A stretch of 64,000 nucleotides of DNA from a phage: sequence record PZ452579.1. The stretch is one strand, 5' to 3'. The notes under the pieces were generated by a model. The model did no database searches. It was not told the origin of the DNA and was given only the letters and a program-made list of their open reading frames with translations. Made by a program: the position numbers and the translations under genes. This document shows positions 18,328-31,422 of this stretch, in pieces (position 1 is the first letter of the stretch; every line of letters begins with the position of its first letter).

Positions 18328-18714
18328 TTATAGATTCGGTTTATATGATTTAAATGTTTCGAATTCGCCTTTATTCATAAGAGCTTTGAATTCGTCAGGA
18401 CGCATAGCTTTGTCGTCGATAATCCAATCATATACTGGTTTATGTGTTAGCAAATTATGGTACTTTAAGCCAATGTTTGCCAAGTTCTGGATCAGACTTG
18501 GGAGAATGTCAATTGCTATACGACCAGGACCTACTGACTTCATACCGCGAGCAGTGTAAAGCGTTATGGTATGCCCTGCATCATACAGGGCATTAATGGC
18601 AGACACCATTTCGACGTCTGGTTTGAAGTTCACGTAATCACGATTGTTATTCCACTCTGTTATACAATCATCGACATCAAAACAAAGATTAAGCATGTTT
18701 TCTACACGGTGCAT
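18328..18714 (-). CDS. HAD-superfamily phosphatase (small, C0-type)
   Basis: FDVDDCIT (motif I), YTARG (motif II), KP...IIDDK (motifs III/IV); start ATG shares a base with upstream stop (TAATG). Confidence 0.7.
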   Translation of the reverse strand: MHRVENMLNLCFDVDDCITEWNNNRDYVNFKPDVEMVSAINALYDAGHTITLYTARGMKSVGPGRIAIDILPSLIQNLANIGLKYHNLLTHKPVYDWIIDDKAMRPDEFKALMNKGEFETFKSYKPNL

Positions 18715-20399
18715 TAGATTCGTTCCCATTGATGAGTGATATCGCCACCGATTGGACGATAGGAAACACCAGTTTCTTTATCAGTTAGTACCCATTTACC
18801 AGGATTTTTTGTAATCAGAGTAGCCGTTACAGGTTCTGCTACGTCATAACTAATAGAGCCGTCTTGAAGTACACGGCCCATATTACGTAATTGCTTAGTC
18901 AGAAGTTCCATACCTTTATAATATGCGGCTACCGCTTTAAGTGGATTATTCTTGAAATAACCACCTAATGCAATCCAGATAATTGCCACTGCCAAATGAT
19001 GATACTCGTTAAACGAACTCATCTTTCCATATTTGTAAACTAATGGATTGATGTTAATAGTCACATTACAAGTTGTTTCATCAATAGTAAACTGTCCCCA
19101 GGTCGGATTAGCGTTGAATTCATCATAACCTGAAACAGCATAAAGCACTTTAGCTTCATCGTACAATTTTGGCCCGTAAATCTTGGTTTCGCCAAAATAT
19201 CCACGAGGGTCGATAAACTTGACTTCGCCGTTATCAGTAATCATAGTATTACTGAAGTTCGGGTCACCATGAATAACAGAGTACTGTCCCTGAGAACGGT
19301 TATGATAACGAATAAGGTGTTCTAAAGCTTGTTTCAGCATTGGCTTCAGACGTCCAATCTTAGTGTAGTTCACATGTGTGATTTTACCAAATGAATCAAT
19401 CAATGGTTGAATGCTTTCACAACGATCAATAACTTTCGTATAGAATTCTTTAGTGAAATCACGACGAACAGTTTCAGGACTTACAAAATAAGTGTCTGTG
19501 CTGAATTTCAGTGCATCTAAAATTGCATCAACAATTTGTGGACGAGCAAGACTTGATTTGGATTTAATATATTCAAATGCCGGCTTACCTTTAATGCGTT
19601 CCATTTCAAAGTTATTTTCATTAACAGAAACTAACTGAGGAACTGAATCTGATTTCACTTTAAGATACCATGAAATCTCATCTTTCTGAAGAGCTCGGCC
19701 CTGTTCGGTTAATGCGAATTTAGTTACAGTTTCTTCACCAATTTCAACTGCATTAAAACTACGATTAAGTTCACGAACTTCATGAGCTTTTTCAAGTTTA
19801 GGCATATCACCTAAATCAATTAGATTCATAAGCTCTGATTTATTGAATGCACTGCCGTAAAGGAATTCTACGAAATCACGTCCTTTGCAGTATTCGTGAA
19901 TTTCCTCATCAGTAGAACCCATGTAGAATTCCCAGTCTTTGAACTGATAAATTCCTACAACATTACCACCTGTTGAACCTACGTTAGTGATATTTTCACC
20001 GTCGAAATTATATCGACATTCGTCACCCTTAACATAGATTGCGTTAACATTCCAAGACCATGAACCAAAATCAGGAATAATATCACACCAGTTAACAATT
20101 ACATTATGGCCGTCTAAATCTTTGTGTAATTTAGCAAGAGCATAAGCAGAACCATACGCTTCATCAACTGTACGAATAGTCACATTGAACCCTTCTTGCT
20201 CACAATAAGCTCGAACAGTTTCAGCAAATTTTGAATGAACTACTACAATAATTTCATCTGCGCCAAGGTCAGAATAAATTGTATACAAATTGCTCAGAAT
20301 AGTGTCTTGTTTATAGTTCACAAGAACTTTTGGAATATGGTGAGTAATTGGATATAAACGAGTTGCCAGTCCAGCACCAAGAATAACAGCTTTTTTCAT
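18714..20399 (-). CDS. Bifunctional sugar-1-phosphate nucleotidyltransferase / sugar kinase
   Basis: 561 aa; N-terminal ILGAGLATRL (GxGxR NTase motif), C-terminal IHGDPNFSNTMITDNGEVKFIDPRGYFG (APH/choline-kinase-like catalytic loop). Confidence 0.75.
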   Translation of the reverse strand: MKKAVILGAGLATRLYPITHHIPKVLVNYKQDTILSNLYTIYSDLGADEIIVVVHSKFAETVRAYCEQEGFNVTIRTVDEAYGSAYALAKLHKDLDGHNVIVNWCDIIPDFGSWSWNVNAIYVKGDECRYNFDGENITNVGSTGGNVVGIYQFKDWEFYMGSTDEEIHEYCKGRDFVEFLYGSAFNKSELMNLIDLGDMPKLEKAHEVRELNRSFNAVEIGEETVTKFALTEQGRALQKDEISWYLKVKSDSVPQLVSVNENNFEMERIKGKPAFEYIKSKSSLARPQIVDAILDALKFSTDTYFVSPETVRRDFTKEFYTKVIDRCESIQPLIDSFGKITHVNYTKIGRLKPMLKQALEHLIRYHNRSQGQYSVIHGDPNFSNTMITDNGEVKFIDPRGYFGETKIYGPKLYDEAKVLYAVSGYDEFNANPTWGQFTIDETTCNVTININPLVYKYGKMSSFNEYHHLAVAIIWIALGGYFKNNPLKAVAAYYKGMELLTKQLRNMGRVLQDGSISYDVAEPVTATLITKNPGKWVLTDKETGVSYRPIGGDITHQWERI

Positions 20400-20426
20400 G
20401 TTGAAGTCCTCATTGGTAAGTAGGAG

Positions 20427-20453
20427 TATTGTACACTATTCTAGTTAAAGCAT
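20427..20453 (-). promoter_or_regulatory. Candidate T4 middle promoter (MotA box + -10) upstream of the NTase/kinase gene
   Basis: Minus strand aATGCTTTAa then 11 nt then TACAAT, about 20 nt before RBS GAGGA and ATG at 20399. Confidence 0.4.
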
Positions 20454-20584
20454 TCATACTTTGCTTGTAGTCCAATCATAATCCATCCAATTACAAGTGT
20501 TGGAATCATTACTGGAGCCGTTAAGCTCCAGTAGATAGTCATGACAAGCATCAATAGTAAAAGTCCTATTGTTATTGCTTTCAT
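20441..20584 (-). CDS. 47-aa hydrophobic peptide (single TM)
   Basis: Manual translation MKAITIGLLLLMLVMTIYWSLTAPVMIPTLVIGWIMIGLQAKYECFN; ATG overlaps SIS gene stop (ATGA); below track size cut-off. Confidence 0.35.
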   Translation of the reverse strand: MKAITIGLLLLMLVMTIYWSLTAPVMIPTLVIGWIMIGLQAKYECFN

Positions 20585-21216
20585 TGTTCGCCTCGTAACA
20601 TGGCACCTAGTGCACCGCCTGGATGGAACTTAAGGAAATCATTAGAGGTAAATCCGCGTTCAGACGAAAGGTTGATAGCGAACGTATCGATAAGCGCTAA
20701 CAACAATGTAGTAGACATTGTCGGAGCTAAAGAGTTCTCGTCAACTTCTACCGCGATACCGGTACAGAACGTATAATCAAAAAGAGCTTCGTATTCTTGT
20801 GGAATGTCAGGGTTACAATGTAACAGAATCTGTTTAACCTGAGGACGAATCATACGAAGATGTTTAGCAACACCTATCATTTCTTCAGTCTTACCAGAAC
20901 GACTGATGTGAATCAACACATCATTAGGTGCAATAAATCCTGCGTCACCATGAGAATAATGCCCAGTGTTCAAATACATGCTAGGAATACCTAGTGAAGC
21001 AAAAGTCTCGGAAGCTTTAGTTGCGATATTAGCATTCTTACCAACACCTGTAATAATTACACGACTTTCATAATTACTCAGTCCAGGGCGACGAAGAGTT
21101 TCAAGAATAGCATTATATCGGGCAGGGTTTTGACTAATTACTTTAGCCATAGTGGCAAGAGATGAAGCTTGTTTTACGATTGCGTCAATAGCGATAGTGA
21201 TTGGTGTAGTTTTCAT
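20581..21216 (-). CDS. SIS-domain phosphosugar isomerase (KdsD/GutQ-like arabinose-5-phosphate isomerase, SIS domain only)
   Basis: 211 aa; ITGVGKNANIATK ... HGDAG ... SRSGKTEE pattern matching KdsD SIS domain rather than GmhA. Confidence 0.75.
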   Translation of the reverse strand: MKTTPITIAIDAIVKQASSLATMAKVISQNPARYNAILETLRRPGLSNYESRVIITGVGKNANIATKASETFASLGIPSMYLNTGHYSHGDAGFIAPNDVLIHISRSGKTEEMIGVAKHLRMIRPQVKQILLHCNPDIPQEYEALFDYTFCTGIAVEVDENSLAPTMSTTLLLALIDTFAINLSSERGFTSNDFLKFHPGGALGAMLRGEQ

Positions 21217-21256
21217 ATTTCTCTCATTTAATTAGTTGGCCGTCCTTGGCATTATA

Positions 21257-23968
21257 TCAAAAATCAAACATATCGAACAGAGATGCTTTCTTCTCGTAAT
21301 CGAGTTTCGCTGCTGATGTGAATCCTTCAAGCGGTTTAATAAATGTCTTCTCAAGGAGAACAGTGTAGTCCATCCAATGAAGTACATCATCTTTGATTAA
21401 ATCAGTGATTTCCGTACCAGAAGGCCATGCGATACATTTATCACCGAATGGGTTTCCTTCACGTAAAGGCAGAACATATACTTTTTCACCTTCTACAACT
21501 TGTGGAGCATCAATATTACCTTTGATAGCCCGGTTATATGTCAGAATTCCACGAATATGGAACGGGCATTTAGGTCCTGGATATCCACCTACATCATATT
21601 TAGCAATGTTATTCGCAGAAGATACCGACGCGATGCTAATATAATTCAATTGACGGAATTCTTTTTCAAACTCTTTAAAATATTCTTGTAATGATTCTTC
21701 ACCTTCTTGAAGCATACGACGAATACATTCTTTAAGAGCTTTCTGTACTGCTTTAGGAGTCGAAGATTTCTGAGTCTCTAGACCCATGATTTTGAGTTTA
21801 GGCTCAGCGTATCTGGTTCCTTCCATATCCCACACGTTTAATGCATAACGTTTCTTACCAGTCCAGAATCCACCAATACCTTTAGAACCGAGCGGAGGAC
21901 CAGCGATAGCTTCTCGGTCCATGAACATTAAGTGTTGTTTATTGTTCATGTATTCACACATTTCACGGAAACCTTTATCAATAGCTGGTTCCATACGTTC
22001 ACGTGCAAACTTATCTAAGAAGTCTACCCAATGGTTGGTATCACGGAATTTAGATTCACCAACCTTATCGATAATTTTATCAGCAGATACGTAAATAGAG
22101 TCTGTATCACCATAAAGAACGAAAGCTTCACCTTCTGTACCACAAACTTCATTCAGATATTCATTAACTTTACGTTCAATCCACTGTAAAGCCATTTGAC
22201 CAAATGTTGTGATTGCAGTAGCATTACGCAAATCATAATAACGGAACCAAACGTTGCCAAGTGCACCATAAAGTGAGTTGATAAGCAATTTACGGTTAAT
22301 CTGTGCAGTCATACCTGCAACTTCAGTACGTTGAGCTCTAAACAACATTTCATTAAGAGATTTAGCAGACAACTTTTTAATCTTTTCTTTAATCTCATCA
22401 CTGAAGTCGAAACGATAATCAACATCTAATGGTTCGTCAACAGAAAGATTAGGATTATGTAAGGCCTCTTTAATTATTTCACCATTACGTTGAGCCGCAA
22501 GCATATAACCTTTATGTTCTTTACGTTGATTAAAGACTTTAGTGATTTCAGTTGGAACAACACCGTCACGGTCTTTATAATACATCATGCCGTTAGGAGA
22601 ACAACTGTACACATCAGAAGGACGTTCAGCAACAGCGTTAATATAATCATGTAATGGAGCTACTTTAAACGTTCCTGCTATTGTTTCTGGGCTAATATTC
22701 ACTTGGCGAATGATGCTTGGATACAGAGATGTTAGGTCGAAGCTCATCACATATTTGTATCGATTTGGAATAGGTTCCTTAACAAAAGCACCCGGGTAAG
22801 GTTGAACTGGATGCGAACGACCTTGTGGAATCACCTTGTTTTGTTCTTTAAGGCTATTAAAAATAATAGCGTCCCACGTTTTAATTGGGCTAAACACAGA
22901 TTGAATCTGTATCTTAGCATAATAACCCATGTCCAAGCTCAAGTTAATGAACTGACGCTTAGCATCAATTTGCAATACACGATACACGTCGATAATGTTA
23001 TAAGAAATATATCGTTGGTGATTGCTTTCACGAAGCTTAGAAATAGGGCCATCATATTTCAGTTTACCAACGTTCAATTCAAATTCTGAAATGTAATCCA
23101 GAGAATACGACGGTTGATTGGTAAAAGAGAATTTTTTGTAAAGGTCGATGTAATCAAGAACAGAGATACCGAACAATGTAATGATTTCTCGTGAACCATA
23201 CATGTTTTCAATAACTTTAACACGAGTCTTGCGATGTGGTGACAACCGTTTTGCTGTGGATTCGCCAAAAATATTCTTGATTCGGTTATACACATATGGA
23301 ATATCAAATGACTCAACGTTCCATCCAGTCAAAATGACAGGAGTTTTCTGTTGCCAGAAGTTGAGATATTCCATCAACAATTCTTTTTCGTTATCGAACG
23401 GCATATAAATGATTTTATCGATAATTTCAGATGGAACTTCATCACCGCCTTGTTCTTGAAGCTTAGCAGCGATTTCAATAGACCATTCTTCTACATTACC
23501 ATATGGAGAATTCAATAGATCAAATACGTAGAACCTGTCGTCAATTGAGTCATAATGGGTGATAGCATCAATCGGATGTTTTGCTTGTGACGGCTCAGGG
23601 AACCCGTCCGGAGATGTTACTTCGATGTCGAAGTTAGCCACACGAATTTTTGTATGGTCGTATTTGATTTCATAGTTATAAGTGTCAGACAAATACGCCA
23701 ATTTGAAATCGTCCATGCCAAGTGCTTCAAGTCCGATATCTTCCATGCGTTTAATCCATTGTGAGGCATCACGCATATTAGCGAACAACTTACGAGTACA
23801 CGGCTTACCGTAGATATCGAAATATTTCGTAGCCTGACTTTCTGGACAATGAGCAAACAGTGATGGTTTATATTCTACTTCACGAGTACGTTCACGGCCG
23901 TTAGAATCGATGTAACGTTCAAAAATTGAATCACCGATCTGTTCAACCGTTAAGTAAAATTCTTTCAT
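21257..23968 (-). CDS. 43: DNA polymerase gp43 (family B)
   Basis: 903 aa; exonuclease and polymerase motifs including YGDTDS; T4 gp43 size and position. Confidence 0.95.
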   Translation of the reverse strand: MKEFYLTVEQIGDSIFERYIDSNGRERTREVEYKPSLFAHCPESQATKYFDIYGKPCTRKLFANMRDASQWIKRMEDIGLEALGMDDFKLAYLSDTYNYEIKYDHTKIRVANFDIEVTSPDGFPEPSQAKHPIDAITHYDSIDDRFYVFDLLNSPYGNVEEWSIEIAAKLQEQGGDEVPSEIIDKIIYMPFDNEKELLMEYLNFWQQKTPVILTGWNVESFDIPYVYNRIKNIFGESTAKRLSPHRKTRVKVIENMYGSREIITLFGISVLDYIDLYKKFSFTNQPSYSLDYISEFELNVGKLKYDGPISKLRESNHQRYISYNIIDVYRVLQIDAKRQFINLSLDMGYYAKIQIQSVFSPIKTWDAIIFNSLKEQNKVIPQGRSHPVQPYPGAFVKEPIPNRYKYVMSFDLTSLYPSIIRQVNISPETIAGTFKVAPLHDYINAVAERPSDVYSCSPNGMMYYKDRDGVVPTEITKVFNQRKEHKGYMLAAQRNGEIIKEALHNPNLSVDEPLDVDYRFDFSDEIKEKIKKLSAKSLNEMLFRAQRTEVAGMTAQINRKLLINSLYGALGNVWFRYYDLRNATAITTFGQMALQWIERKVNEYLNEVCGTEGEAFVLYGDTDSIYVSADKIIDKVGESKFRDTNHWVDFLDKFARERMEPAIDKGFREMCEYMNNKQHLMFMDREAIAGPPLGSKGIGGFWTGKKRYALNVWDMEGTRYAEPKLKIMGLETQKSSTPKAVQKALKECIRRMLQEGEESLQEYFKEFEKEFRQLNYISIASVSSANNIAKYDVGGYPGPKCPFHIRGILTYNRAIKGNIDAPQVVEGEKVYVLPLREGNPFGDKCIAWPSGTEITDLIKDDVLHWMDYTVLLEKTFIKPLEGFTSAAKLDYEKKASLFDMFDF

Positions 23969-24023
23969 TTAATTTCCTTTAGACGAGTTATTGTCTTTTG
24001 TTTGTTGATGAACTTATTATACT

Positions 24024-24046
24024 CCAAATGGGACCGAAGTCCCATT
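24024..24046 (-). terminator. C(UUCG)G hairpin between regA and 43
   Basis: AATGGGAC-CGAA-GTCCCATT 8-bp stem; immediately 3' of regA stop. Confidence 0.5.
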
Positions 24047-24049
24047 GCT

Positions 24050-24418
24050 TTAATTACCAATTGTATATTTTGCTTTCAAAGTCCAGTCATCTTTCTGTTT
24101 AAAAGAGATAACTCGGAAGTTATTAGTCAGGCTAAATAGATCTTCACGAGCAGAGTCTTCAATAACAATCAATCCCCAGTCTTCAAGCAACTGGGCAATC
24201 GAATCACGTCGCTGATAGTCTTCACCGTCAATATCAACCTGACGTCCATCCATACGCAACATTTCTTTAAAGTGGACGATATAGTACTTACCTTGCTTTT
24301 GGAGGATATGACAAGACTGGTAAAGGACTTTATCCTTGTTATTAGCGATGCCCATACGGGTCAAAGTCTCTTTGACTTTCAGAAAATCTTCAGGGTTCTT
24401 CAATTTAATTTCAATCAT
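24050..24418 (-). CDS. regA: Translational repressor RegA
   Basis: MIEIKLKNPEDFLKVKETLTRMGIANNKDKVLYQSCHILQK... near-identical to T4 RegA; start at homologous Met. Confidence 0.9.
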   Translation of the reverse strand: MIEIKLKNPEDFLKVKETLTRMGIANNKDKVLYQSCHILQKQGKYYIVHFKEMLRMDGRQVDIDGEDYQRRDSIAQLLEDWGLIVIEDSAREDLFSLTNNFRVISFKQKDDWTLKAKYTIGN

Positions 24419-24420
24419 TT

Positions 24421-24984
24421 TTACCATTCCAATGCTATTTTTTTAAATTGTTTTTGTTCTTTCACATTTTTTGTAACTTCTTTGAGAAACTCATCAGTGA
24501 CCATGGCCTTCAGTTCTTTAAGGACTATTGGCAACTTGTTATTTTTTTCAAGGAGCCGCTTATACTCGGTAGCATCATTCATGTTGATTGTGTAATGTTT
24601 CATCAACAGTTTGATAACTAGTAACTCTGAAGTGTCTTCGACTAGTTTAGCCCATTTAGAGAATCGACGACCACGCGGAATTGCCGCCATCATATAGTTG
24701 AAGTGCGCTTCATCACTTAATTCAGAACCGACTAAGTTCATCATGTAAACAGCTGGCATACATTCTGGGAACTGTGATAATGAGTTCTCAACCATAAATT
24801 TTGAGTAGTCGACCTGAGCAATTGACATAGATTTCTTTTCATTAATAGCATTAATGATTTTAAAGAATTCATTCTCAGGTTTTTCTTTAAACATATCAGC
24901 ACATTTTTGAATCGCATCAGCGTCATTAGACTTCCATGCAATTTGGTGCTCGTTAAGCCGGACGTCATCATCAAATAAGTTCAT
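24421..24984 (-). CDS. 62: Clamp loader subunit gp62
   Basis: 187 aa; matches T4 gp62 along its length. Confidence 0.88.
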
Positions 24985-24985
24985 A

Positions 24986-25948
24986 TTATTTCCAAGTCAG
25001 TTCGCAGGTCAGTTGAAGAAGCATATACATAACATGTAATTCAATATTACTTGCTAATCCATGAAACTTATTGTTTTCGCCTGCAATTTCATAAAGCGAA
25101 ATAATACTTTTACCAGGTGCAACTTGGTCATAACATTCTGAAACTAATTTATCGATGAACCATGAATAATCTGCAGCGTATTTTGGAGCTAATGCACGAA
25201 GCTGTTTGATATCTTTGTTCTTCATTGCTTCGATAACATCAGAGACTGTGCCACGGTCATTAGTTACGATAGACAAAATACCCGCATCAAGAACACCTTT
25301 AGACGAGTACTGGTCTAATTGACCAATTGTACGACGAAAGTCCGGGAAGTTCTTTTTAACCAGAGCTGCAACAACTTTCATATCGGCGATTTCGATATTT
25401 TCATTCTTACAGATTTCAACCATACGATGAATCATTTTCTTCATCATCGAGATTTTATCTTCTTCGGTTGGACGACCGAATTCGATAACTCGACAACGAC
25501 TACGTAATGGTTCAATAATTCCATCGATGTTGTTAGCAGTAATAACAATAGAGCAGTTACTAGAGAATTCTTCCATAAACGTACGAAGGTGTCGTTGTGA
25601 TTCGGCGAGGCCACTACGGTCAAATTCATCGATAACGATAACTTTAGGCTTGCCTTCCATTGAGACCGAACGAGCGAATGCAGTTAACGGACCACGCACA
25701 AAATCAATCTTACAATCAGAACCGTTGACGAACATCATTTCGGCATTGATATCATTACATAATGCTTTTGCTACGGTTGTTTTACCTGTACCAGGAGAAG
25801 GAGAGTGCAAAATAATATGAGGAAGTTTTCCTTTAGATACTAAAGACTTGAATGTTTCATGGTCATACTCAGGCAGAATACATTCGTCAATGGAAGAAGG
25901 ACGATATTTCTGTTCTAGAATGTGTTCTTTGGAATTGATAGTAATCAT
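24986..25948 (-). CDS. 44: Clamp loader ATPase gp44
   Basis: 320 aa; Walker [14 protein letters not shown]+ motifs. Confidence 0.92.
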
Positions 25949-26023
25949 GTAATTTTCCTCATTATCATTAAACTGGAGGATTTCTCCTCCATAATCGTAT
26001 CACAATAAACGTAAAGCTTTGAC

Positions 26024-26710
26024 TTAGAAGTCGTGAGTAGAATCGGCTTCCATCGCAATAACATAACTTACTTGAGAGCTTTCAAACTTGGCTGCAACTT
26101 TATCACCAGCTCCCCACAACATTACTTTATAGTTACCTGGCTGGATTTTCATATTAGCCATATTGATTACGAAGTTAAAGTTGTTAGAACCATCATAATC
26201 GGTAAGAGTCAAAGAATACTTAGGACGAGTTAGTCCAGAATCTTCAACTTTATTATAGCCATTGATAACAATTTTACCATCTTTATTTGTAATAGCAATT
26301 GTATCAATCTGAAGACCACGTGAAACTCGAAGTAATTGTTGAAGGTCTTCAGCTTTAATTTCAGTAATCACAGAAGCCACTGGGAATTGAATTGGCTTAT
26401 TAGGAAAAACAATGGTGCTCTTGTCAGCGGCAGGCCAATAAACTGTGGAACGTGTATCTGCAATTTTAATATTGCCATCAGTGTGCATTGAAATTTCAGC
26501 ATCGTCAGACACTAGACTCAAAATGCTTAAGAAGCTATTCAAATCATAAAGTGCTACGTCAAAATCAATTTCATCGGAGATATTTGCTTCCGCATAAGTG
26601 GTGCCATTAACTGCACGAGTCATAATAAATTTACCTTGACTCAGCAGAATGCCGGAGTTAATAGAGGCAAAGTTTTTCAGAATAGCGATAGTATCTTTAG
26701 ACAGTTTCAT
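26024..26710 (-). CDS. 45: Sliding clamp gp45
   Basis: MKLSKDTIAILKNFASINSGILL... matches T4 gp45; start at homologous Met. Confidence 0.92.
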   Translation of the reverse strand: MKLSKDTIAILKNFASINSGILLSQGKFIMTRAVNGTTYAEANISDEIDFDVALYDLNSFLSILSLVSDDAEISMHTDGNIKIADTRSTVYWPAADKSTIVFPNKPIQFPVASVITEIKAEDLQQLLRVSRGLQIDTIAITNKDGKIVINGYNKVEDSGLTRPKYSLTLTDYDGSNNFNFVINMANMKIQPGNYKVMLWGAGDKVAAKFESSQVSYVIAMEADSTHDF

Positions 26711-26752
26711 TTTATTTCCTTTCAAGACAATTCAAAGTTTATAACAAATTTA

Positions 26753-27169
26753 TTATGCAGCAACCATCTGCTTTTTAATAGCTTCAGGCAGTGATTCAAT
26801 ATATTCTGGAATTTTAGAAGCAACAATTTCGCCAGCTGCAATTAGTTGTTCGTCGGCATCAACACAGTAGAAATCTTCTAGACGCTCAGAACCGTCTTTA
26901 TCAAGAACGATTTTTCCGCCAGCTTCAATAGAATCTTTATAGTGCTTACGCATTAGATGAATCCACATATCAGATACATCGTTATCAATAAAACCATAAA
27001 TCATAAAACGAGTTTCTTGTGGCAAAGATTGGAGTTTTTTAGCACTTGCGTCATCACAATGCAGGACCCATGCTTTACGAACACGATTATGGTTATGTGG
27101 GTTAGAGTCAGTACGGATAGAAGTAACTTTCAGATCAGCAGCAGTGAAACCTTTAGCAGTAGTAAACAT
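26753..27169 (-). CDS. rpbA: RNA polymerase binding protein RpbA (by synteny and similarity)
   Basis: 138-aa ORF directly downstream of gene 45. Confidence 0.65.
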   Translation of the reverse strand: MFTTAKGFTAADLKVTSIRTDSNPHNHNRVRKAWVLHCDDASAKKLQSLPQETRFMIYGFIDNDVSDMWIHLMRKHYKDSIEAGGKIVLDKDGSERLEDFYCVDADEQLIAAGEIVASKIPEYIESLPEAIKKQMVAA

Positions 27170-27181
27170 ATTATTTCTCTC

Positions 27182-27373
27182 TTATTCGTAGAAGTCGGTA
27201 ACTGTCCATGCGGTATTGCGATTAGACATTATTTTATTATACTCGTCTTTAAAAGCAGATTTGAGCATTTGTTCAGTAACAATATGTTCTTCACCTGAAA
27301 ACGTATTGGTCAAAACATATTTTTTAATTTCAGGGACAACGAGAAGATGTTGGCCGGTTGAATACTCCGCCAT
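27182..27373 (-). CDS. Hypothetical protein (45.2 position)
   Basis: 63-aa ORF. Confidence 0.45.
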   Translation of the reverse strand: MAEYSTGQHLLVVPEIKKYVLTNTFSGEEHIVTEQMLKSAFKDEYNKIMSNRNTAWTVTDFYE

Positions 27374-27393
27374 TATAAATCTCCGAGATTAAA

Positions 27394-27401
27394 GCAATAT
27401 A
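27394..27401 (+). promoter_or_regulatory. Plus-strand late promoter TATAAATA upstream of the HNH endonuclease gene
   Basis: Exact tataaata about 50 nt upstream of ATG at 27451. Confidence 0.5.
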
Positions 27402-27450
27402 AATAGGTTTATCAATTTATCTGTTGCTGTATCAAATAAGGATTTAGTAA

Positions 27451-28167
27451 ATGAATTATAACTCAATATACGAAAAGCTTATCACCAATGCTAAATCAAG
27501 AAGTTTAGATGGTTATACAGAACGTCATCACATTATACCACAATGTTTAGGTGGAAGTGATGATGCTTTAAACTTAGTAGACTTAACACCGGAAGAACAT
27601 TATTTGGCACATCAACTGTTGGTAAAAATCCATCCAGATAATGCCTCTTTAATATATGCCGCTCGTATGATGACCATATCATCTCCTAAAGCAGATAGAA
27701 GCAAAAACAAATTATTTGGATGGCTTCGACGTAAGAATCAAGAAGTTCAAAAGAACAAAGAATTCACTGCTGAAACCCGTAAGAAAATGTCTGAGTCTGC
27801 AAAAAATAAACCAAAGATTACATGTCCACACTGCGGTTTAACCGGCACTGAAGGAAACATGAGACGTTGGCATTTTGATAACTGTAAACAAGGCCCTACG
27901 CCTAAAATAGTAAAACTTGATCAAGAAACAAAAGATAAAATAATTAAAACCATGGCCACGAAAATTTGGAAAGAAGATTCTTGCCCGTTTTGTGGCTTAA
28001 CTACTAAGTTATCGGCGTTAAAGCCACATATAAAATTCTGTAAATCAAATCCTAACAGAAAGAAAAAAGAGGACAAGAAAATTAAATGTCCTCATTGCGA
28101 TAAAATAGGGATCCCTGCTAATATGCATCGTTGGCATTTTGATAACTGTAAACATAAGCCTCATTAA
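27451..28167 (+). mobile_element. Free-standing HNH homing endonuclease with three C-terminal zinc-binding repeats
   Basis: 238 aa; ERHHIIPQCLGGSDDALNLVDLTPEEHYLAHQ (HNH); three CxxC...RWHFDNCK-type modules; only sizeable plus-strand gene in this block. Confidence 0.8.
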
Positions 28168-29852
28168 GAGGCTTTCATTACAGTAAATCGTCCAACTTTG
28201 CTCATTTGCAAATGTTGTCCATAAGCTTGTGGGTCATGGTCTCTGTGACTAATTATAAACACGTTTGCATCGGTTAGAGAGTTAAGAATTGTTGAAATAG
28301 CTTTAATACCTTCAGAATCAGTCGCGGAATCCATGACTTCGTCCATAATTAATGTATTGATTCTAACACCAGAGACCTTTTCAGCAATATCTCGCCATGT
28401 AAACAACAATGCGATATCGATACGTGCCTTTTCACCTTGACTAAACGAAGCATAACTGAATTCTTCACGACCACGTGATTTTATAGATTCATTGAATTCT
28501 TCGTCAATAGAAAACACGTAATCAGCTTCCATGATTTTAAGATAATGGTTAATCTGCTTATTGAACAAAGGCACATATTTTTTAATGATAGCACCTTTAA
28601 TACCAGAATCTTTTAACATATCTGTGATAATACCACGATGGTATTTTTCAAGAACGATATCCGATTTTGTTTTAATGATTTTATCAAGTTCTTTTTGAAG
28701 CAAAGCTATCTCATCGGCATGGTCGATAAATTCCGCCGAGGCTTGTTCTATTGCCGCTTTAACTTTCTTAGCTTTATCAATAGTGGCAATCATTGCTTGT
28801 TTCTTGGTACGAATATCAGATGCAAGGTCCTGTTTAGTCTTAACATTAGCTCTATATTCGTCCACTAGGACACTCAGATTATCTCTGTGACATGTAAGTT
28901 GCTCGAATGAGTGATTACATTCGTGAAGCTTATCGGTAATCTTAGAGACAATAGGATCACCCTGGTGTAACTGTGATGCACAAGTAGGACATGTACCGCC
29001 ATCATGATACATCTTAATAACTTTGTTATATGAGTCAATTTTAGATTTAATCAAGAATGCTTCTTGTCCTATCTTGTTGAATGCCTCAGTAGGGTCTTCA
29101 TCAAGAACGATATTAAGTAGTCGCTCATTAGCTTCTTCGATTTCTGCTTTTAATGAACGAGCTTCTTTGGCTAGGTCGTCATACATATTCTGTAGACGCG
29201 CTACATTATCACCAGATAATTTCTTTTGACGTTCGATATTCTCGTTATAAATCTTAATTTGTTGGATAACACCATCTTTCTTGGCATCAAGAACTTGTCC
29301 CTGAGAATTAAGTTCGCGAACTTGAGACTTATTGATTTTATCCATTTCAGCGAGTGTGCCGACTTCTAAAAGGTCTTCGACAAGTTTTCTACGAGCAGGG
29401 GTGCTAAGAGCCATGAAAGGGGTATACCCTGCCGTCCCAAGCACAACGATTTGTTTAAAAGACGCGTATGACATTCCGATGCTACGTTCAAATTCTTCTT
29501 GGAAGTCACGACTGCTGGCAGATTCATCAAGACGAACGCCGTCAACGGAGATTTCGAAAATATTGGGCTTTTGACCACGTCTAATGAAGTATTTTTTATC
29601 ATCGAATTCCATCCAAAGCTCAACTAAGAGCTCTTTCTTGTTCGTGCTATTAATGATTTGCCCTTTCTTAACATCACGAAATGGTTTACCGAAAAGTCCG
29701 AAAGTAATGGCTTCTAACATCGTAGATTTACCGCCGCCATTTTTACCGGTGATTAATGTCTTTTGGACTTTATCTAATTGGATATCAATAGGATTCCCAC
29801 CTACCGACATGATGTTTTGATAACGAACACGATTTAATTTAAATGATTTCAT
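28164..29852 (-). CDS. 46: Recombination nuclease subunit gp46 (Rad50/SbcC-like)
   Basis: 562 aa; Walker A GKNGGGKSTMLEAI, coiled-coil middle, signature/Walker B at C-terminus. Confidence 0.92.
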   Translation of the reverse strand: MKSFKLNRVRYQNIMSVGGNPIDIQLDKVQKTLITGKNGGGKSTMLEAITFGLFGKPFRDVKKGQIINSTNKKELLVELWMEFDDKKYFIRRGQKPNIFEISVDGVRLDESASSRDFQEEFERSIGMSYASFKQIVVLGTAGYTPFMALSTPARRKLVEDLLEVGTLAEMDKINKSQVRELNSQGQVLDAKKDGVIQQIKIYNENIERQKKLSGDNVARLQNMYDDLAKEARSLKAEIEEANERLLNIVLDEDPTEAFNKIGQEAFLIKSKIDSYNKVIKMYHDGGTCPTCASQLHQGDPIVSKITDKLHECNHSFEQLTCHRDNLSVLVDEYRANVKTKQDLASDIRTKKQAMIATIDKAKKVKAAIEQASAEFIDHADEIALLQKELDKIIKTKSDIVLEKYHRGIITDMLKDSGIKGAIIKKYVPLFNKQINHYLKIMEADYVFSIDEEFNESIKSRGREEFSYASFSQGEKARIDIALLFTWRDIAEKVSGVRINTLIMDEVMDSATDSEGIKAISTILNSLTDANVFIISHRDHDPQAYGQHLQMSKVGRFTVMKAS

Positions 29853-30103
29853 ATGTATTCTCTTCGAATGAAGTCCTCTACATATTTTAACATGTCATCC
29901 CTATCAGCAAAATATTCATCTAGTTCTGCATACATAACAACACCTGGTGCGTACTCACAGGTAACATACATTGTTCCAAAGAAACGAGGAGTTGATTCCT
30001 CGTAATTCTCAGTCCATTCAACGATACCAATATAACCGTCACCAATACTAAATTCATGACGATGGATTTCATAATCAGTCTTCGTCATTATACGCATCCT
30101 CAA
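29849..30103 (-). CDS. Hypothetical protein (46.1 position)
   Basis: 84-aa ORF. Confidence 0.45.
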   Translation of the reverse strand: MRMRIMTKTDYEIHRHEFSIGDGYIGIVEWTENYEESTPRFFGTMYVTCEYAPGVVMYAELDEYFADRDDMLKYVEDFIRREYI

Positions 30104-30332
30104 TACACGCTTCAGCCATTTTAAGAATAGAGCCAGGAGTATCGTTGTCCATTATATTAAAGCTAAATTCAATAGCCCAGTCGGTGCAGACATGAACTGC
30201 TTTAACTTCATTGCCTTCAACGCGTAATGGCTCAATCCAATACTTGATAGTGTTCTCGAATCCATCATCATCTTTAACGTCCATTTCAACTTCAAGCCTG
30301 AGTCCAGCATTGTTAAATTCATCTAAAGTCAT
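30075..30332 (-). CDS. Hypothetical acidic protein (46.2 position)
   Basis: 85-aa ORF. Confidence 0.45.
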   Translation of the reverse strand: MTLDEFNNAGLRLEVEMDVKDDDGFENTIKYWIEPLRVEGNEVKAVHVCTDWAIEFSFNIMDNDTPGSILKMAEACIEDAYNDED

Positions 30333-31348
30333 TGTGTTGCCTCAATATAAAGTTCGTTGGAATATTTGACCAGCGCTTCTCTGTCTTCGTCTGAGATATC
30401 TGGAATCGCGTCAATATATTCTTTAATGATATCTTGAAGTGATTTAATCTCGATTTCCTGGTCGTCATCAGATTCAACACTGTTATCAACTTTAGAAACC
30501 ATACGAAGAGAGTGAACTACTTTTTCAAGTTCAGATTCAAACTTAGTCAACTCTGAATCAATTTCTGATACTATAACACGTACGGCTAGATTGGTATAAT
30601 CAGAATAATTGATTTTGCCTTTAAATGGATAAGTGATTCGTCGATGCCATGTTGTTTCATTAGGAATAAATTCCATACGTTCAACATCAGTGTCAAATAC
30701 CCAGAATCCGCGCGGGTCGTTCTCATCACCTGCAGTAAGGGTCCATGGTGTCCCAATATATTTGACGTTAGCAGCTTCAGAGATTGTGTGGAAGTGGCCG
30801 GACCAGACTTGTTTATAGGTCTTTAAGAAATCAGGTTCAAGCCCATGAGACTTCATTCCTTTATAGAAATAAAAGCCATTCAGTTCCCAGTGACCAACAC
30901 AATACGCAGCAGAAGAAGTCTTGATGTGCTCTAAGATTTCACCTGTATTTTCTTCACACATCCATGGAACGATATCAATCAGACATCCATCAAAATCTAC
31001 AGTAGTTGGATGCTCGTAAATAGTAAAGTTTTCAAATTGAGTTAACAATTCAGAAACAGTGTTAGGTGTTATTGTATTCTTAAACGCCATGTCATGGTTT
31101 CCTATCGTGACATGAACGTGAATGCCTGCTTTAGAAATCATATCAACGATTTCACGATTGAATTCCATTGTACGATGTGTTATTGCTTTACGGACGTCAA
31201 ACCAATCACCGTACTGAATCCAAGTTTTAATCCCGTGTTTCTTAGAGTATTCAATTGCTTGTCGAATACCATCACGTTGAATATCTTGAACCCATGGGTC
31301 GTCTTGTTTGACTCCGATATGGAAGTCGCCTAAGTGCAAAATTTTCAT
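30329..31348 (-). CDS. 47: Recombination nuclease subunit gp47 (Mre11/SbcD-like)
   Basis: 339 aa; phosphoesterase motifs MKILHLGDFH, GNHD. Confidence 0.92.
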   Translation of the reverse strand: MKILHLGDFHIGVKQDDPWVQDIQRDGIRQAIEYSKKHGIKTWIQYGDWFDVRKAITHRTMEFNREIVDMISKAGIHVHVTIGNHDMAFKNTITPNTVSELLTQFENFTIYEHPTTVDFDGCLIDIVPWMCEENTGEILEHIKTSSAAYCVGHWELNGFYFYKGMKSHGLEPDFLKTYKQVWSGHFHTISEAANVKYIGTPWTLTAGDENDPRGFWVFDTDVERMEFIPNETTWHRRITYPFKGKINYSDYTNLAVRVIVSEIDSELTKFESELEKVVHSLRMVSKVDNSVESDDDQEIEIKSLQDIIKEYIDAIPDISDEDREALVKYSNELYIEATQ

Positions 31349-31394
31349 ATTATTTCCTCATTAGTTAATTCATTCTATCATCCGTTTATAAAGC

Positions 31395-31422
31395 AAAAAA
31401 AAAAGGAACTCCGAAGAGTTCC
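31395..31422 (-). terminator. Intrinsic terminator, C(UUCG)G hairpin plus U-run
   Basis: A10 then GGAACTC-CGAA-GAGTTCC on plus strand; sits between a small upstream ORF and gene 47. Confidence 0.65.

Follow-up and report, generated by a model that had tools for sequence, protein, structure and literature searches.

The HNH homing endonuclease MobE, whose free-standing gene adjoins nrdB in phage T4, nicks nrdB about 120 nt into the gene; phages that carry mobE are polymorphic at this position, which is protective, and repair co-converts the flanks (PMC2790892). I-TevIII, encoded in the nrdB intron of phage RB3, combines an N-terminal HNH domain with C-terminal zinc fingers, and by mutagenesis each of its CX2CX12-13HX3C motifs has been shown to coordinate one zinc and to be required for DNA binding (PMC1865063). 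Here we describe a gene with affinities to both, located between genes 45.2 and 46 in a 64,000-nucleotide stretch of phage DNA (sequence record PZ452579.1, hereafter the window), which represents 64 kb of an RB69-like T-even phage of the genus Mosigvirus. On the basis of sequence comparisons, we put the probability at about three in four that the gene encodes an intact, free-standing Mob-class homing endonuclease that spreads by MobE-like homing together with the end of gene 46.

A sequence-only reading had placed a free-standing HNH homing endonuclease gene at this junction, beginning at position 27394. The gene is present and intact, however, position 27394 falls in its upstream region, and the true start of the plus-strand open reading frame (ORF), which encodes 238 residues, is 27451. 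The surrounding minus-strand genes follow the order regA, 62, 44, 45, rpbA, 45.2, 46, 46.1/46.2 and 47, and a region of 2.2 kb around the gene is 99.2% identical to phage vB_EcoM_G2469 and, outside the insert, 98.4% identical to RB69. The endonuclease gene and gene 46 are convergent, and their stop codons overlap inside a TTAA tetranucleotide. The claim that this is the only sizeable plus-strand gene stands in a qualified form: it is the longest plus-strand ORF of the window, and each of three other plus-strand ORFs of at least 110 residues that were examined (starts at 954, 3120 and 62693) is overlapped by a longer minus-strand ORF. No paralogue of the gene occurs elsewhere in the window.

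The protein is 100% identical to one from phage FL31 that is deposited in GenBank as 'homing endonuclease'; the gene is an intact, ordinary selfish gene of T4-like phages that is already annotated as such publicly. A literature search by the ORF names in RB32 and RB51 and by the 45.2/46 location found no publication on the gene, its target or its linkage to gene 46 alleles.

Mob-type nuclease domain and zinc fingers

The protein falls into PHROGs family 655, 'homing endonuclease' (E 7e-67), and its N-terminal 95–150 residues are homologous to the Mob proteins with which it was compared by BLASTP, i.e., T4 MobE (44% identity, E 8e-29), MobB (44%, E 1e-25), MobD (38%, E 8e-25) and MobC (36%, E 3e-19), as well as RB3 MobE (44%, E 3e-23). 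The alignments end at about residue 120–130, where the DNA-binding regions start. No substitution of residues H26, H27, N41, H50 and H54 of the HNH motif (ERHHIIPQCLGG..N41..EH50..H54) occurs among 95 homologues, the most distant of which are about 36% identical. An AlphaFold model built from 95 sequences (mean pLDDT 92.8) displays a strand-strand-helix nuclease core (strands 24–27 and 42–45, helix 47–60), the fold of the strand-strand-helix metal superfamily, and three strand-strand-helix fingers. Its nearest neighbours among predicted viral structures are HNH homing endonucleases, T4 MobB, MobC and I-TevIII among them. The HNH nuclease recognised in the sequence-only reading is thus supported, by homology, as a member of the T4 Mob class.

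Searches of structural and curated databases were less productive. A search of Protein Data Bank (PDB) sequences with the single sequence returned nothing significant, and only the family profile reached HNH structures, aligning the HNH motif of McrA (6ghc) with an E value of 0.003 and, more weakly and below significance, those of a group II intron maturase HNH and of Cas8f-HNH (E about 0.05). NCBIfam returned nothing significant for the endonuclease, and the zinc-ribbon and HNH models that Pfam and NCBIfam did match stayed below threshold; the protein is therefore classified by its PHROGs family, its pairwise homology to the T4 proteins and its structure. The Mob subfamily is poorly covered by the curated Pfam and NCBIfam HNH models.

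Compared with the allele of phage F2, the gene differs by 20 synonymous codons and 1 non-synonymous codon, and compared with that of ESCO47 by 11 synonymous codons and 1 non-synonymous codon. Codon comparison thus indicates that the gene is under purifying selection, and the near-exclusively synonymous nature of the substitutions implies that it is functional.

Behind the nuclease, two short helices and three Cys2-His-Cys fingers, spanning residues 125–145, 178–197 and 213–233, constitute a predicted extended DNA-binding region. A motif scan of all frames of the window found three intact Cys2-His-Cys motifs, all in the endonuclease, while four other matches contain stop codons; the intact motifs are thus exactly the three zinc-binding modules that had been proposed. 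Their description as copies of a CxxCGLTG...RWHFDNCK module is loosely right, with GLT occurring in fingers 1 and 2, and RWHFDNCK in fingers 1 and 3. All four ligands of finger 3 are invariant in the 95 homologues, and those of fingers 1 and 2 are conserved at 90% or more in 23 aligned sequences. Finger 1 is predicted in the AlphaFold model as two strands (122–124 and 131–133) followed by a helix (134–144).

Fingers 2 and 3 align with the two fingers of RB3 I-TevIII (38% identity over 74 residues, E 1e-10), and the fingers also match the I-TevIII remnant of T4 (E 2e-11). With respect to the I-TevIII spacing, CX2CX12-13HX3C, fingers 1 and 3 have X12, and finger 2, with X11, is one residue short. 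Judged by these alignments, the protein joins a Mob-type nuclease to fingers of the I-TevIII type, of which it has three and not two. Pfam NUMOD3 (PF07460) is present in many of the homologues; it was not listed for the window protein at E ≤ 1, and the likeness of FTAETRKKMSES to this motif is by eye only.

The 26-bp repeat reported for the first and third modules is present as two identical copies, with both coordinates in need of correction, by 3 and 1 nt. The exact 26-mer lies within a 77-nt repeat (D1) of 73% identity. The two copies have no mismatches in the window and in ESCO47, 2 synonymous mismatches in F2, and 4–8 in other alleles. A role as a functional DNA element or as a deletion hotspot of the family was considered and dropped, since the repeat is allele-specific and the identical peptides account for it. 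The repeat follows from the shared peptide and is not a conserved element, its identity perhaps helped by occasional intragenic conversion, and a repeat-mediated in-frame deletion of 264 bp is possible in the window allele.

In most alleles (orthologues in L002–L008 and L032), fingers 1 and 3 agree at the synonymous sites of the RWHFDNC-coding core, and the core codons vary between alleles (TTT/AAC, TTC/AAC and TTT/AAT). This agreement hints at gene conversion between the fingers, the signal being marginal with few independent alleles. The endonuclease allele of the Mosigvirus mar005p1 (L004, 1252–1968) is chimeric. In the nuclease domain and finger 1 it is almost the same as the window allele, whereas fingers 2 and 3 come from another lineage resembling protein P0005, and its 46 non-synonymous codon differences are confined to the C-terminal half.

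Spacer replacement, distribution and gene 46 alleles

The empty site is represented by a 55-nt spacer in T4 and a 54-nt spacer in RB69, neither of which holds a gene, in agreement with the earlier statement that T4 has no gene at this position. Compared with RB69, the cassette gives gene 45.2 a new start (MAEYS versus MEYS) and a new ribosome-binding site, and alters the last three residues of gp46 (MKAS* versus MTVS*). In alignment, the insert is a replacement of the native spacer rather than a clean insertion. The Dhakavirus equivalent is a 774-bp insertion in L032, a locus from the IMG/VR collection, relative to L022, its closest endonuclease-free relative. An Rfam scan of positions 26700–28900 at E ≤ 1 returned no intron or other RNA family, consistent with a free-standing gene between two others.

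A near-identical endonuclease gene occurs in 14 of the 620 phage records that match the flanks. In IMG/VR, a single locus (L032) carries the gene among about 44 that hold homologues of both 46 and 45.2; the gaps in the remaining loci are mostly 0–65 nt, and four have 200–420 nt. The latter are T4-like (L046–L048 and L057) and too short for the endonuclease; other small inserts, or remnants, may be present at the same junction in these loci. This junction also holds orthologues with 57–72% amino acid identity, again antisense to the neighbouring genes, in Tequatrovirus (RB51), Dhakavirus (MX01, FB and IME281/L032) and Gaprivervirus (PSD2001), so that, with Mosigvirus, same-junction occupancy spans four genera. 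The RB51 orthologue is annotated as 'similar to mobB', and more distant relatives adjoin gene 46 in Klebsiella and Cronobacter phages. The proposal of a mobile insertion is supported by this distribution, i.e., absence from T4, RB69 and most relatives, and by the footprints of lateral transfer described below.

Full-length relatives with 30–37% identity and the same nuclease-plus-fingers length are found next to head-completion/neck genes and nrdA in T4-like phages of Klebsiella, Aeromonas and Escherichia (records H111–H123); the same architecture has therefore colonised several other loci. On an environmental viral contig (L077, 4319–4762), a distant HNH homologue, 30% identical over residues 3–132, sits about 800 nt beyond the end of a gene 46 homologue, and the attraction of HNH genes to the gene 46 neighbourhood may extend far outside the enterobacterial T-even phages.

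The footprint of the insertion lies on the gene 46 side. Between RB51 and T4, the 45.2 side is about 100% identical up to the junction, whereas the last 300 bp or so of gene 46 are 68–90% identical, after which identity returns to 100%. L032 and L022 differ by 83 mismatches in the last 284 bp or so of gene 46, compared with 0–7 mismatches per 100 bp further upstream; on the 45.2 side, the first 100 bp contain 3. In every carrier lineage (55 loci, four genera), the gene 46 3′ segment is 75–80% identical to that of the nearest non-carrier, and the preceding 600 nt of gene 46 are 97–99% identical (94% in FB). The divergent, carrier-linked 3′ end amounts to 140–300 bp. A single gene 46 allele travelling across the genera was rejected, as the carrier ends are about 75–80% identical to everything else sampled.

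MX01 and L032 are 96–100% identical over the endonuclease gene and about 350 bp of gene 46, and 83–94% identical in the backbones on either side, which identifies this pair, as far as sequence can tell, as a case of recent cassette transfer from phage to phage. A block of ESCO47 that covers 45, rpbA and 45.2 (25889–27370) has about 80–89% identity to the window and ends exactly at the left junction of the cassette, while identity in the endonuclease gene and gene 46 is about 98%. Over the longer range of window positions 18692–31401, ESCO47 (L003/L091) is a patchwork in which blocks of 80–90% identity alternate with blocks of 98–99%.

Within Mosigvirus, a segment of gene 46 that encodes part of the gp46 ATPase core exists as two alleles, A and B, which differ at 45 of 135 nucleotides and 11 of 45 residues. 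Allele A is found in about 65 of the Mosigvirus database records and allele B in about 90. The window and all 14 carrier records belong to the allele A group, with no carrier on the allele B side (naive Fisher p about 2e-6, kinship ignored); the alleles of four carriers were read directly and the others were inferred from flank identity of at least 97.5%. The spacer of RB69 is the native empty one and differs by 1 nt from that of the allele B phages, and from this comparison RB69 looks like a recombinant and not a deletion derivative.

A candidate homing mechanism and its alternatives

Drawing on the footprints and on the precedents of MobE and I-TevIII, we propose the following mechanism. In a mixed infection with a relative devoid of the endonuclease gene, the enzyme would bind the gene 46 3′ end of that relative, most likely some 60–300 bp from the stop codon, and would either nick it as a MobE-like monomer or introduce a double-strand break as an I-TevIII-like dimer. 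The predicted homing target region is 28225–28363, and a highly conserved block encoding ARIDIALLFTWRDIA just upstream is a possible anchor or crossover point. The T4-type recombination machinery would repair the break from the endonuclease-carrying genome, and repair would copy the endonuclease gene with the adjoining end of gene 46, which, owing to its many substitutions, should be a substrate no longer. The mobile unit would accordingly be a cassette of about 1.1 kb that comprises the endonuclease gene, the rewritten 45.2 start and the divergent gene 46 3′ end. The allele tract is separated from the gene 46 stop codon by 50 identical base pairs (28175–28224), and repair tracts terminating there would generate immune, endonuclease-free genomes of the RB69 type. 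If such recombinants took the protected allele without the endonuclease, the gene would for this reason be rare in the genus.

Several observations weigh against this proposal. The literature search found no biochemical data for the endonuclease or any orthologue. The best Pfam HNH model, HNH_5, stays below threshold (E 0.069, 13.5 bits versus a cut-off of 27.5), and the late-promoter motif TATAAATA upstream of the gene occurs in the window at chance level (5 copies versus 7 expected). Mosaicism is common in these genomes, and a block boundary at the gene, as in ESCO47, is only moderate evidence. The association statistic for the gene 46 alleles ignores shared ancestry and duplicate records, and RB69, which has no endonuclease, shares allele A with the carriers. 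A search for a short gene 46 3′ motif conserved in all 45 non-carriers and changed in all five carrier alleles yielded no candidate that stood out.

The main alternative, which we regard as unlikely but worth weighing, is that the same enzyme targets the junction itself. The recognition site would span the native spacer and the last codons of gene 46 and would be destroyed by the insertion, as happens with intron-encoded endonucleases, with the gene 46 ends being passively co-converted. In line with this, endonuclease-free RB69 has the carriers' gene 46 allele and differs from them only in the spacer and the last three codons, and it is exactly the spacer region that the cassette replaces in every genus. 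The two models make different predictions for such phages: a target in the allele tract would render RB69-type genomes immune, and if they act as recipients, the target lies in the spacer or the last gene 46 codons. Against a junction target, no relationship in sequence or length (0–65 nt) links the native spacers of T4, RB69 and Dhakavirus, and 46 and 45.2 abut in many genera, so no conserved target is on offer. Furthermore, the footprint is one-sided in four genera, affecting gene 46 and not 45.2, and the Mosigvirus carriers all have allele A.

An old, vertically inherited resident that has often been lost and is no longer mobile, being inactive or serving another role, with its gene 46 linkage reflecting ordinary mosaicism, is improbable. 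The same-junction orthologues do diverge roughly as the genera do, at 57–72% amino acid identity, and mosaic blocks are frequent throughout the genomes. However, the nearly identical cassettes of MX01 and L032 sit in backbones that differ by 6–17% nearby, the 98%-identical copy of ESCO47 adjoins its block of 80–89% identity, and the strong purifying selection with intact catalytic and zinc ligands argues against decay. Moreover, with the gene present in 1 of about 44 dereplicated loci, a great number of precise losses would have to have occurred independently.

Slightly less probable still is a mainly domesticated factor that does not propagate itself and instead attacks parasites or other phages in the same cell, or acts through its zinc fingers as a regulator of the 46/45.2/rpbA/45 unit. 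In its favour, I-TevI doubles as an autorepressor and T4 endonuclease cassettes often embed host-gene promoters (PMC2988022), a MotA-type promoter match adjoins the endonuclease promoter back to back, and ICP1 has endonuclease-derived defence genes (PMC10448857). Against it, most Mosigvirus genomes lack the gene, its catalytic residues are invariant, and the transfer footprints are of the homing type; at the molecular level, moreover, excluding the markers of a competitor and homing are one and the same act.

A bolder version of the homing proposal can be put forward tentatively: the endonuclease and a protected allele of the gp46 ATPase core might form a two-part mobile cassette whose history is deeper than that of the backbones, and the enzyme might be a natural, modular three-finger nuclease whose fingers are reshuffled, as in mar005p1, and possibly retargeted. 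If this is true, the allelic diversity of a core recombination enzyme would be shaped by the endonuclease in no fewer than four T-even genera, the cassette would yield both carriers and endonuclease-free immune genomes such as RB69, and the fingers would represent a phage-derived programmable scaffold that works on modified DNA.

For genome annotation the finding is routine, as both domains have characterised relatives in MobE and I-TevIII. What the homing proposal adds is a testable picture, in which the target is predicted to lie in the gene 46 3′ end and the cassette is defined at about 1.1 kb. A single genus offers candidate carriers (the window phage and F2), candidate empty-sensitive phages (phiE142-type, allele B) and candidate empty-immune phages (RB69-type, allele A). 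MobE could not be cloned, which hampered the study of Mob-type homing (PMC2790892), and the present locus would give an easy experimental system for Mob-type HNH homing. It would further provide an example of a selfish nuclease that maintains two deeply divergent alleles of an essential ATPase core, and the three tandem fingers together with the mar005p1 chimera would amount to a small natural experiment in modular DNA recognition.

Signals in the cassette and comparison with known systems

The coordinates of the gene, its domains and the surrounding elements are collected in Table 1.

Table 1 Features of the endonuclease cassette and adjoining genes, in window coordinates
Feature	Coordinates	Strand	Basis
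Homing endonuclease ORF, 238 aa	27451..28167, stop codon included	+	ORF list; PHROG 655; identical protein in FL31
N-terminal Mob-type HNH catalytic domain, residues 1–120	27451..27810	+	BLASTP to T4 Mob proteins
HNH core, residues 24–54	27520–27612	+	
Helix before finger 1 (FTAETRKKMSESAK, residues 105–118; predicted helix 107–118)	27763..27804	+	NUMOD3-like by eye
Zinc finger 1, C125-X2-C128-X12-H141-X3-C145	27817..27888	+	Motif scan; ligand conservation; prediction
26-nt repeat copy 1, encodes RWHFDNCK of finger 1	27865..27890	+	Exact 26-mer CGTTGGCATTTTGATAACTGTAAACA
Helix before finger 2 (QETKDKIIKTMAT, residues 158–170; predicted helix 158–170)	27922..27960	+	
Zinc finger 2, C178-X2-C181-X11-H193-X3-C197	27976..28044	+	Motif scan; conservation; prediction; I-TevIII alignment
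Zinc finger 3, C213-X2-C216-X12-H229-X3-C233	28081..28152	+	Ligand invariance; aligns with I-TevIII finger 2
26-nt repeat copy 2, encodes RWHFDNCK of finger 3	28129..28154	+	Exact 26-mer CGTTGGCATTTTGATAACTGTAAACA
Segment replacing the native RB69 45.2–46 spacer, ~805 bp	27369..28173	.	Alignment with RB69 empty site
Gene 46 two-allele segment, gp46 residues 498–542, Walker B to H-loop	28225..28363	−	Mosigvirus alleles A/B
Gene 46, SbcC/Rad50-like recombination nuclease subunit	28164..29852	−	
Gene 45.2, start codon and ribosome-binding site from cassette	27182..27373	−	
T4-type late-promoter motif TATAAATA, 45 nt upstream of ATG	27398..27405	+	Only plus-strand copy in window
MotA-type middle-promoter match (TGCTTTA, 12 nt, TATAAT), cassette left end	27372..27396	−	Pattern scan; function inferred
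Shine-Dalgarno-like AAGGA, 8 nt before ATG	27438..27442	+	Read from sequence
Hairpin AAGCCTC-ATTAA-GAGGCTT, 7-bp stem, over both convergent stop codons	28156..28174	.	

The late promoter that had been read upstream of the gene is present as a motif, and its position is kept at 36–46 nt before the ATG in the Mosigvirus, Tequatrovirus (RB51) and Dhakavirus orthologues, the leaders of which otherwise differ; PSD2001 has CATAAATA in its place. Its function as a promoter is predicted, and its frequency in the window is not above chance. As the sole plus-strand copy, with a position kept in three genera, it suggests that the gene is probably transcribed late from its own promoter, antisense to the surrounding early/middle unit. 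Several endonuclease genes of T4 are transcribed late (PMC2988022). The 5′ leader of the endonuclease mRNA has no significant structure that would occlude the ribosome-binding site (z −0.5), and a scan for sigma-70 promoters and terminators around the gene gave matches at chance level.

The MotA-type match at the left end of the cassette fits its pattern perfectly and stands back to back with the neighbouring late-promoter motif. Because the 45.2 start codon overlaps with the −10 hexamer of this match, transcripts would serve rpbA and 45 rather than 45.2. The pattern TGCTTYA-N11-13-TANNNT occurs 13 times in the window versus 1.57 expected, an eightfold excess, and 10 of the 13 matches are on the minus strand. 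The native spacers of T4 and RB69 hold an equivalent motif, which the cassette copy replaces. The hairpin over the two stop codons has predicted energies of −10 kcal/mol on the plus strand and −11.1 kcal/mol on the minus strand (z-scores −4.6 and −3.6, respectively); the same stem is found in the Dhakavirus L032 cassette, and it may act as a bidirectional terminator or stabiliser.

Among known genes, RB32ORF054w, RB51ORF057 and the 'homing endonuclease' genes of, among others, MX01, Bp7, IME281, F2 and FL31 occupy the same junction in the same orientation and are of the same kind as the window gene, being known as database annotations only. The T4 mob genes resemble it in that they are free-standing, sporadic and located next to essential DNA-metabolism genes, and MobE, MobB, MobC and MobD share its homologous HNH N-terminus. 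Like carriers of the window gene with respect to gene 46, carriers of mobE have a polymorphic neighbour gene, nrdB (PMC2790892). In contrast, the C-terminal DNA-binding regions of the T4 Mob proteins are unrelated to that of the window protein, and their genes are found at loci other than 45.2/46. Furthermore, mobE is promoterless and co-oriented with its neighbours, whereas the window gene is opposed to its neighbours and has a late-promoter motif of its own.

I-TevIII shares with the window protein the arrangement of an N-terminal HNH domain and C-terminal zinc fingers of the same type. It differs, however, in being intron-encoded, while the window gene is free-standing with no intron RNA detected, and in having two fingers where the window protein has three. 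Its HNH domain belongs to a different subfamily, and its N-terminus does not align with that of the window protein. I-TevIII dimerises for the double-strand break.

The best structural matches in the PDB, though weak (E about 1e-2), are the tandem C2H2 arrays of CTCF; a 30-residue match to the Cys2-His-Cys UBZ finger of Rad18 has a target TM of 0.78 and a probability of 0.98, but an E value of 0.86, and Pfam zf-C2H2 matches the window protein weakly (E 0.29). The likeness to such arrays, and to engineered zinc-finger nucleases, lies in three tandem fingers, each predicted as two strands and a helix, placed behind a nuclease domain, and in the C-X2-C-X12-H-X3 spacing, although the last ligand in the window protein is Cys and not His. 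Unlike the base-reading helices of C2H2 fingers, the finger helix RWHFDNC is near-identical in fingers 1 and 3 and in the orthologues, and the linkers between the fingers are long and contain extra helices.

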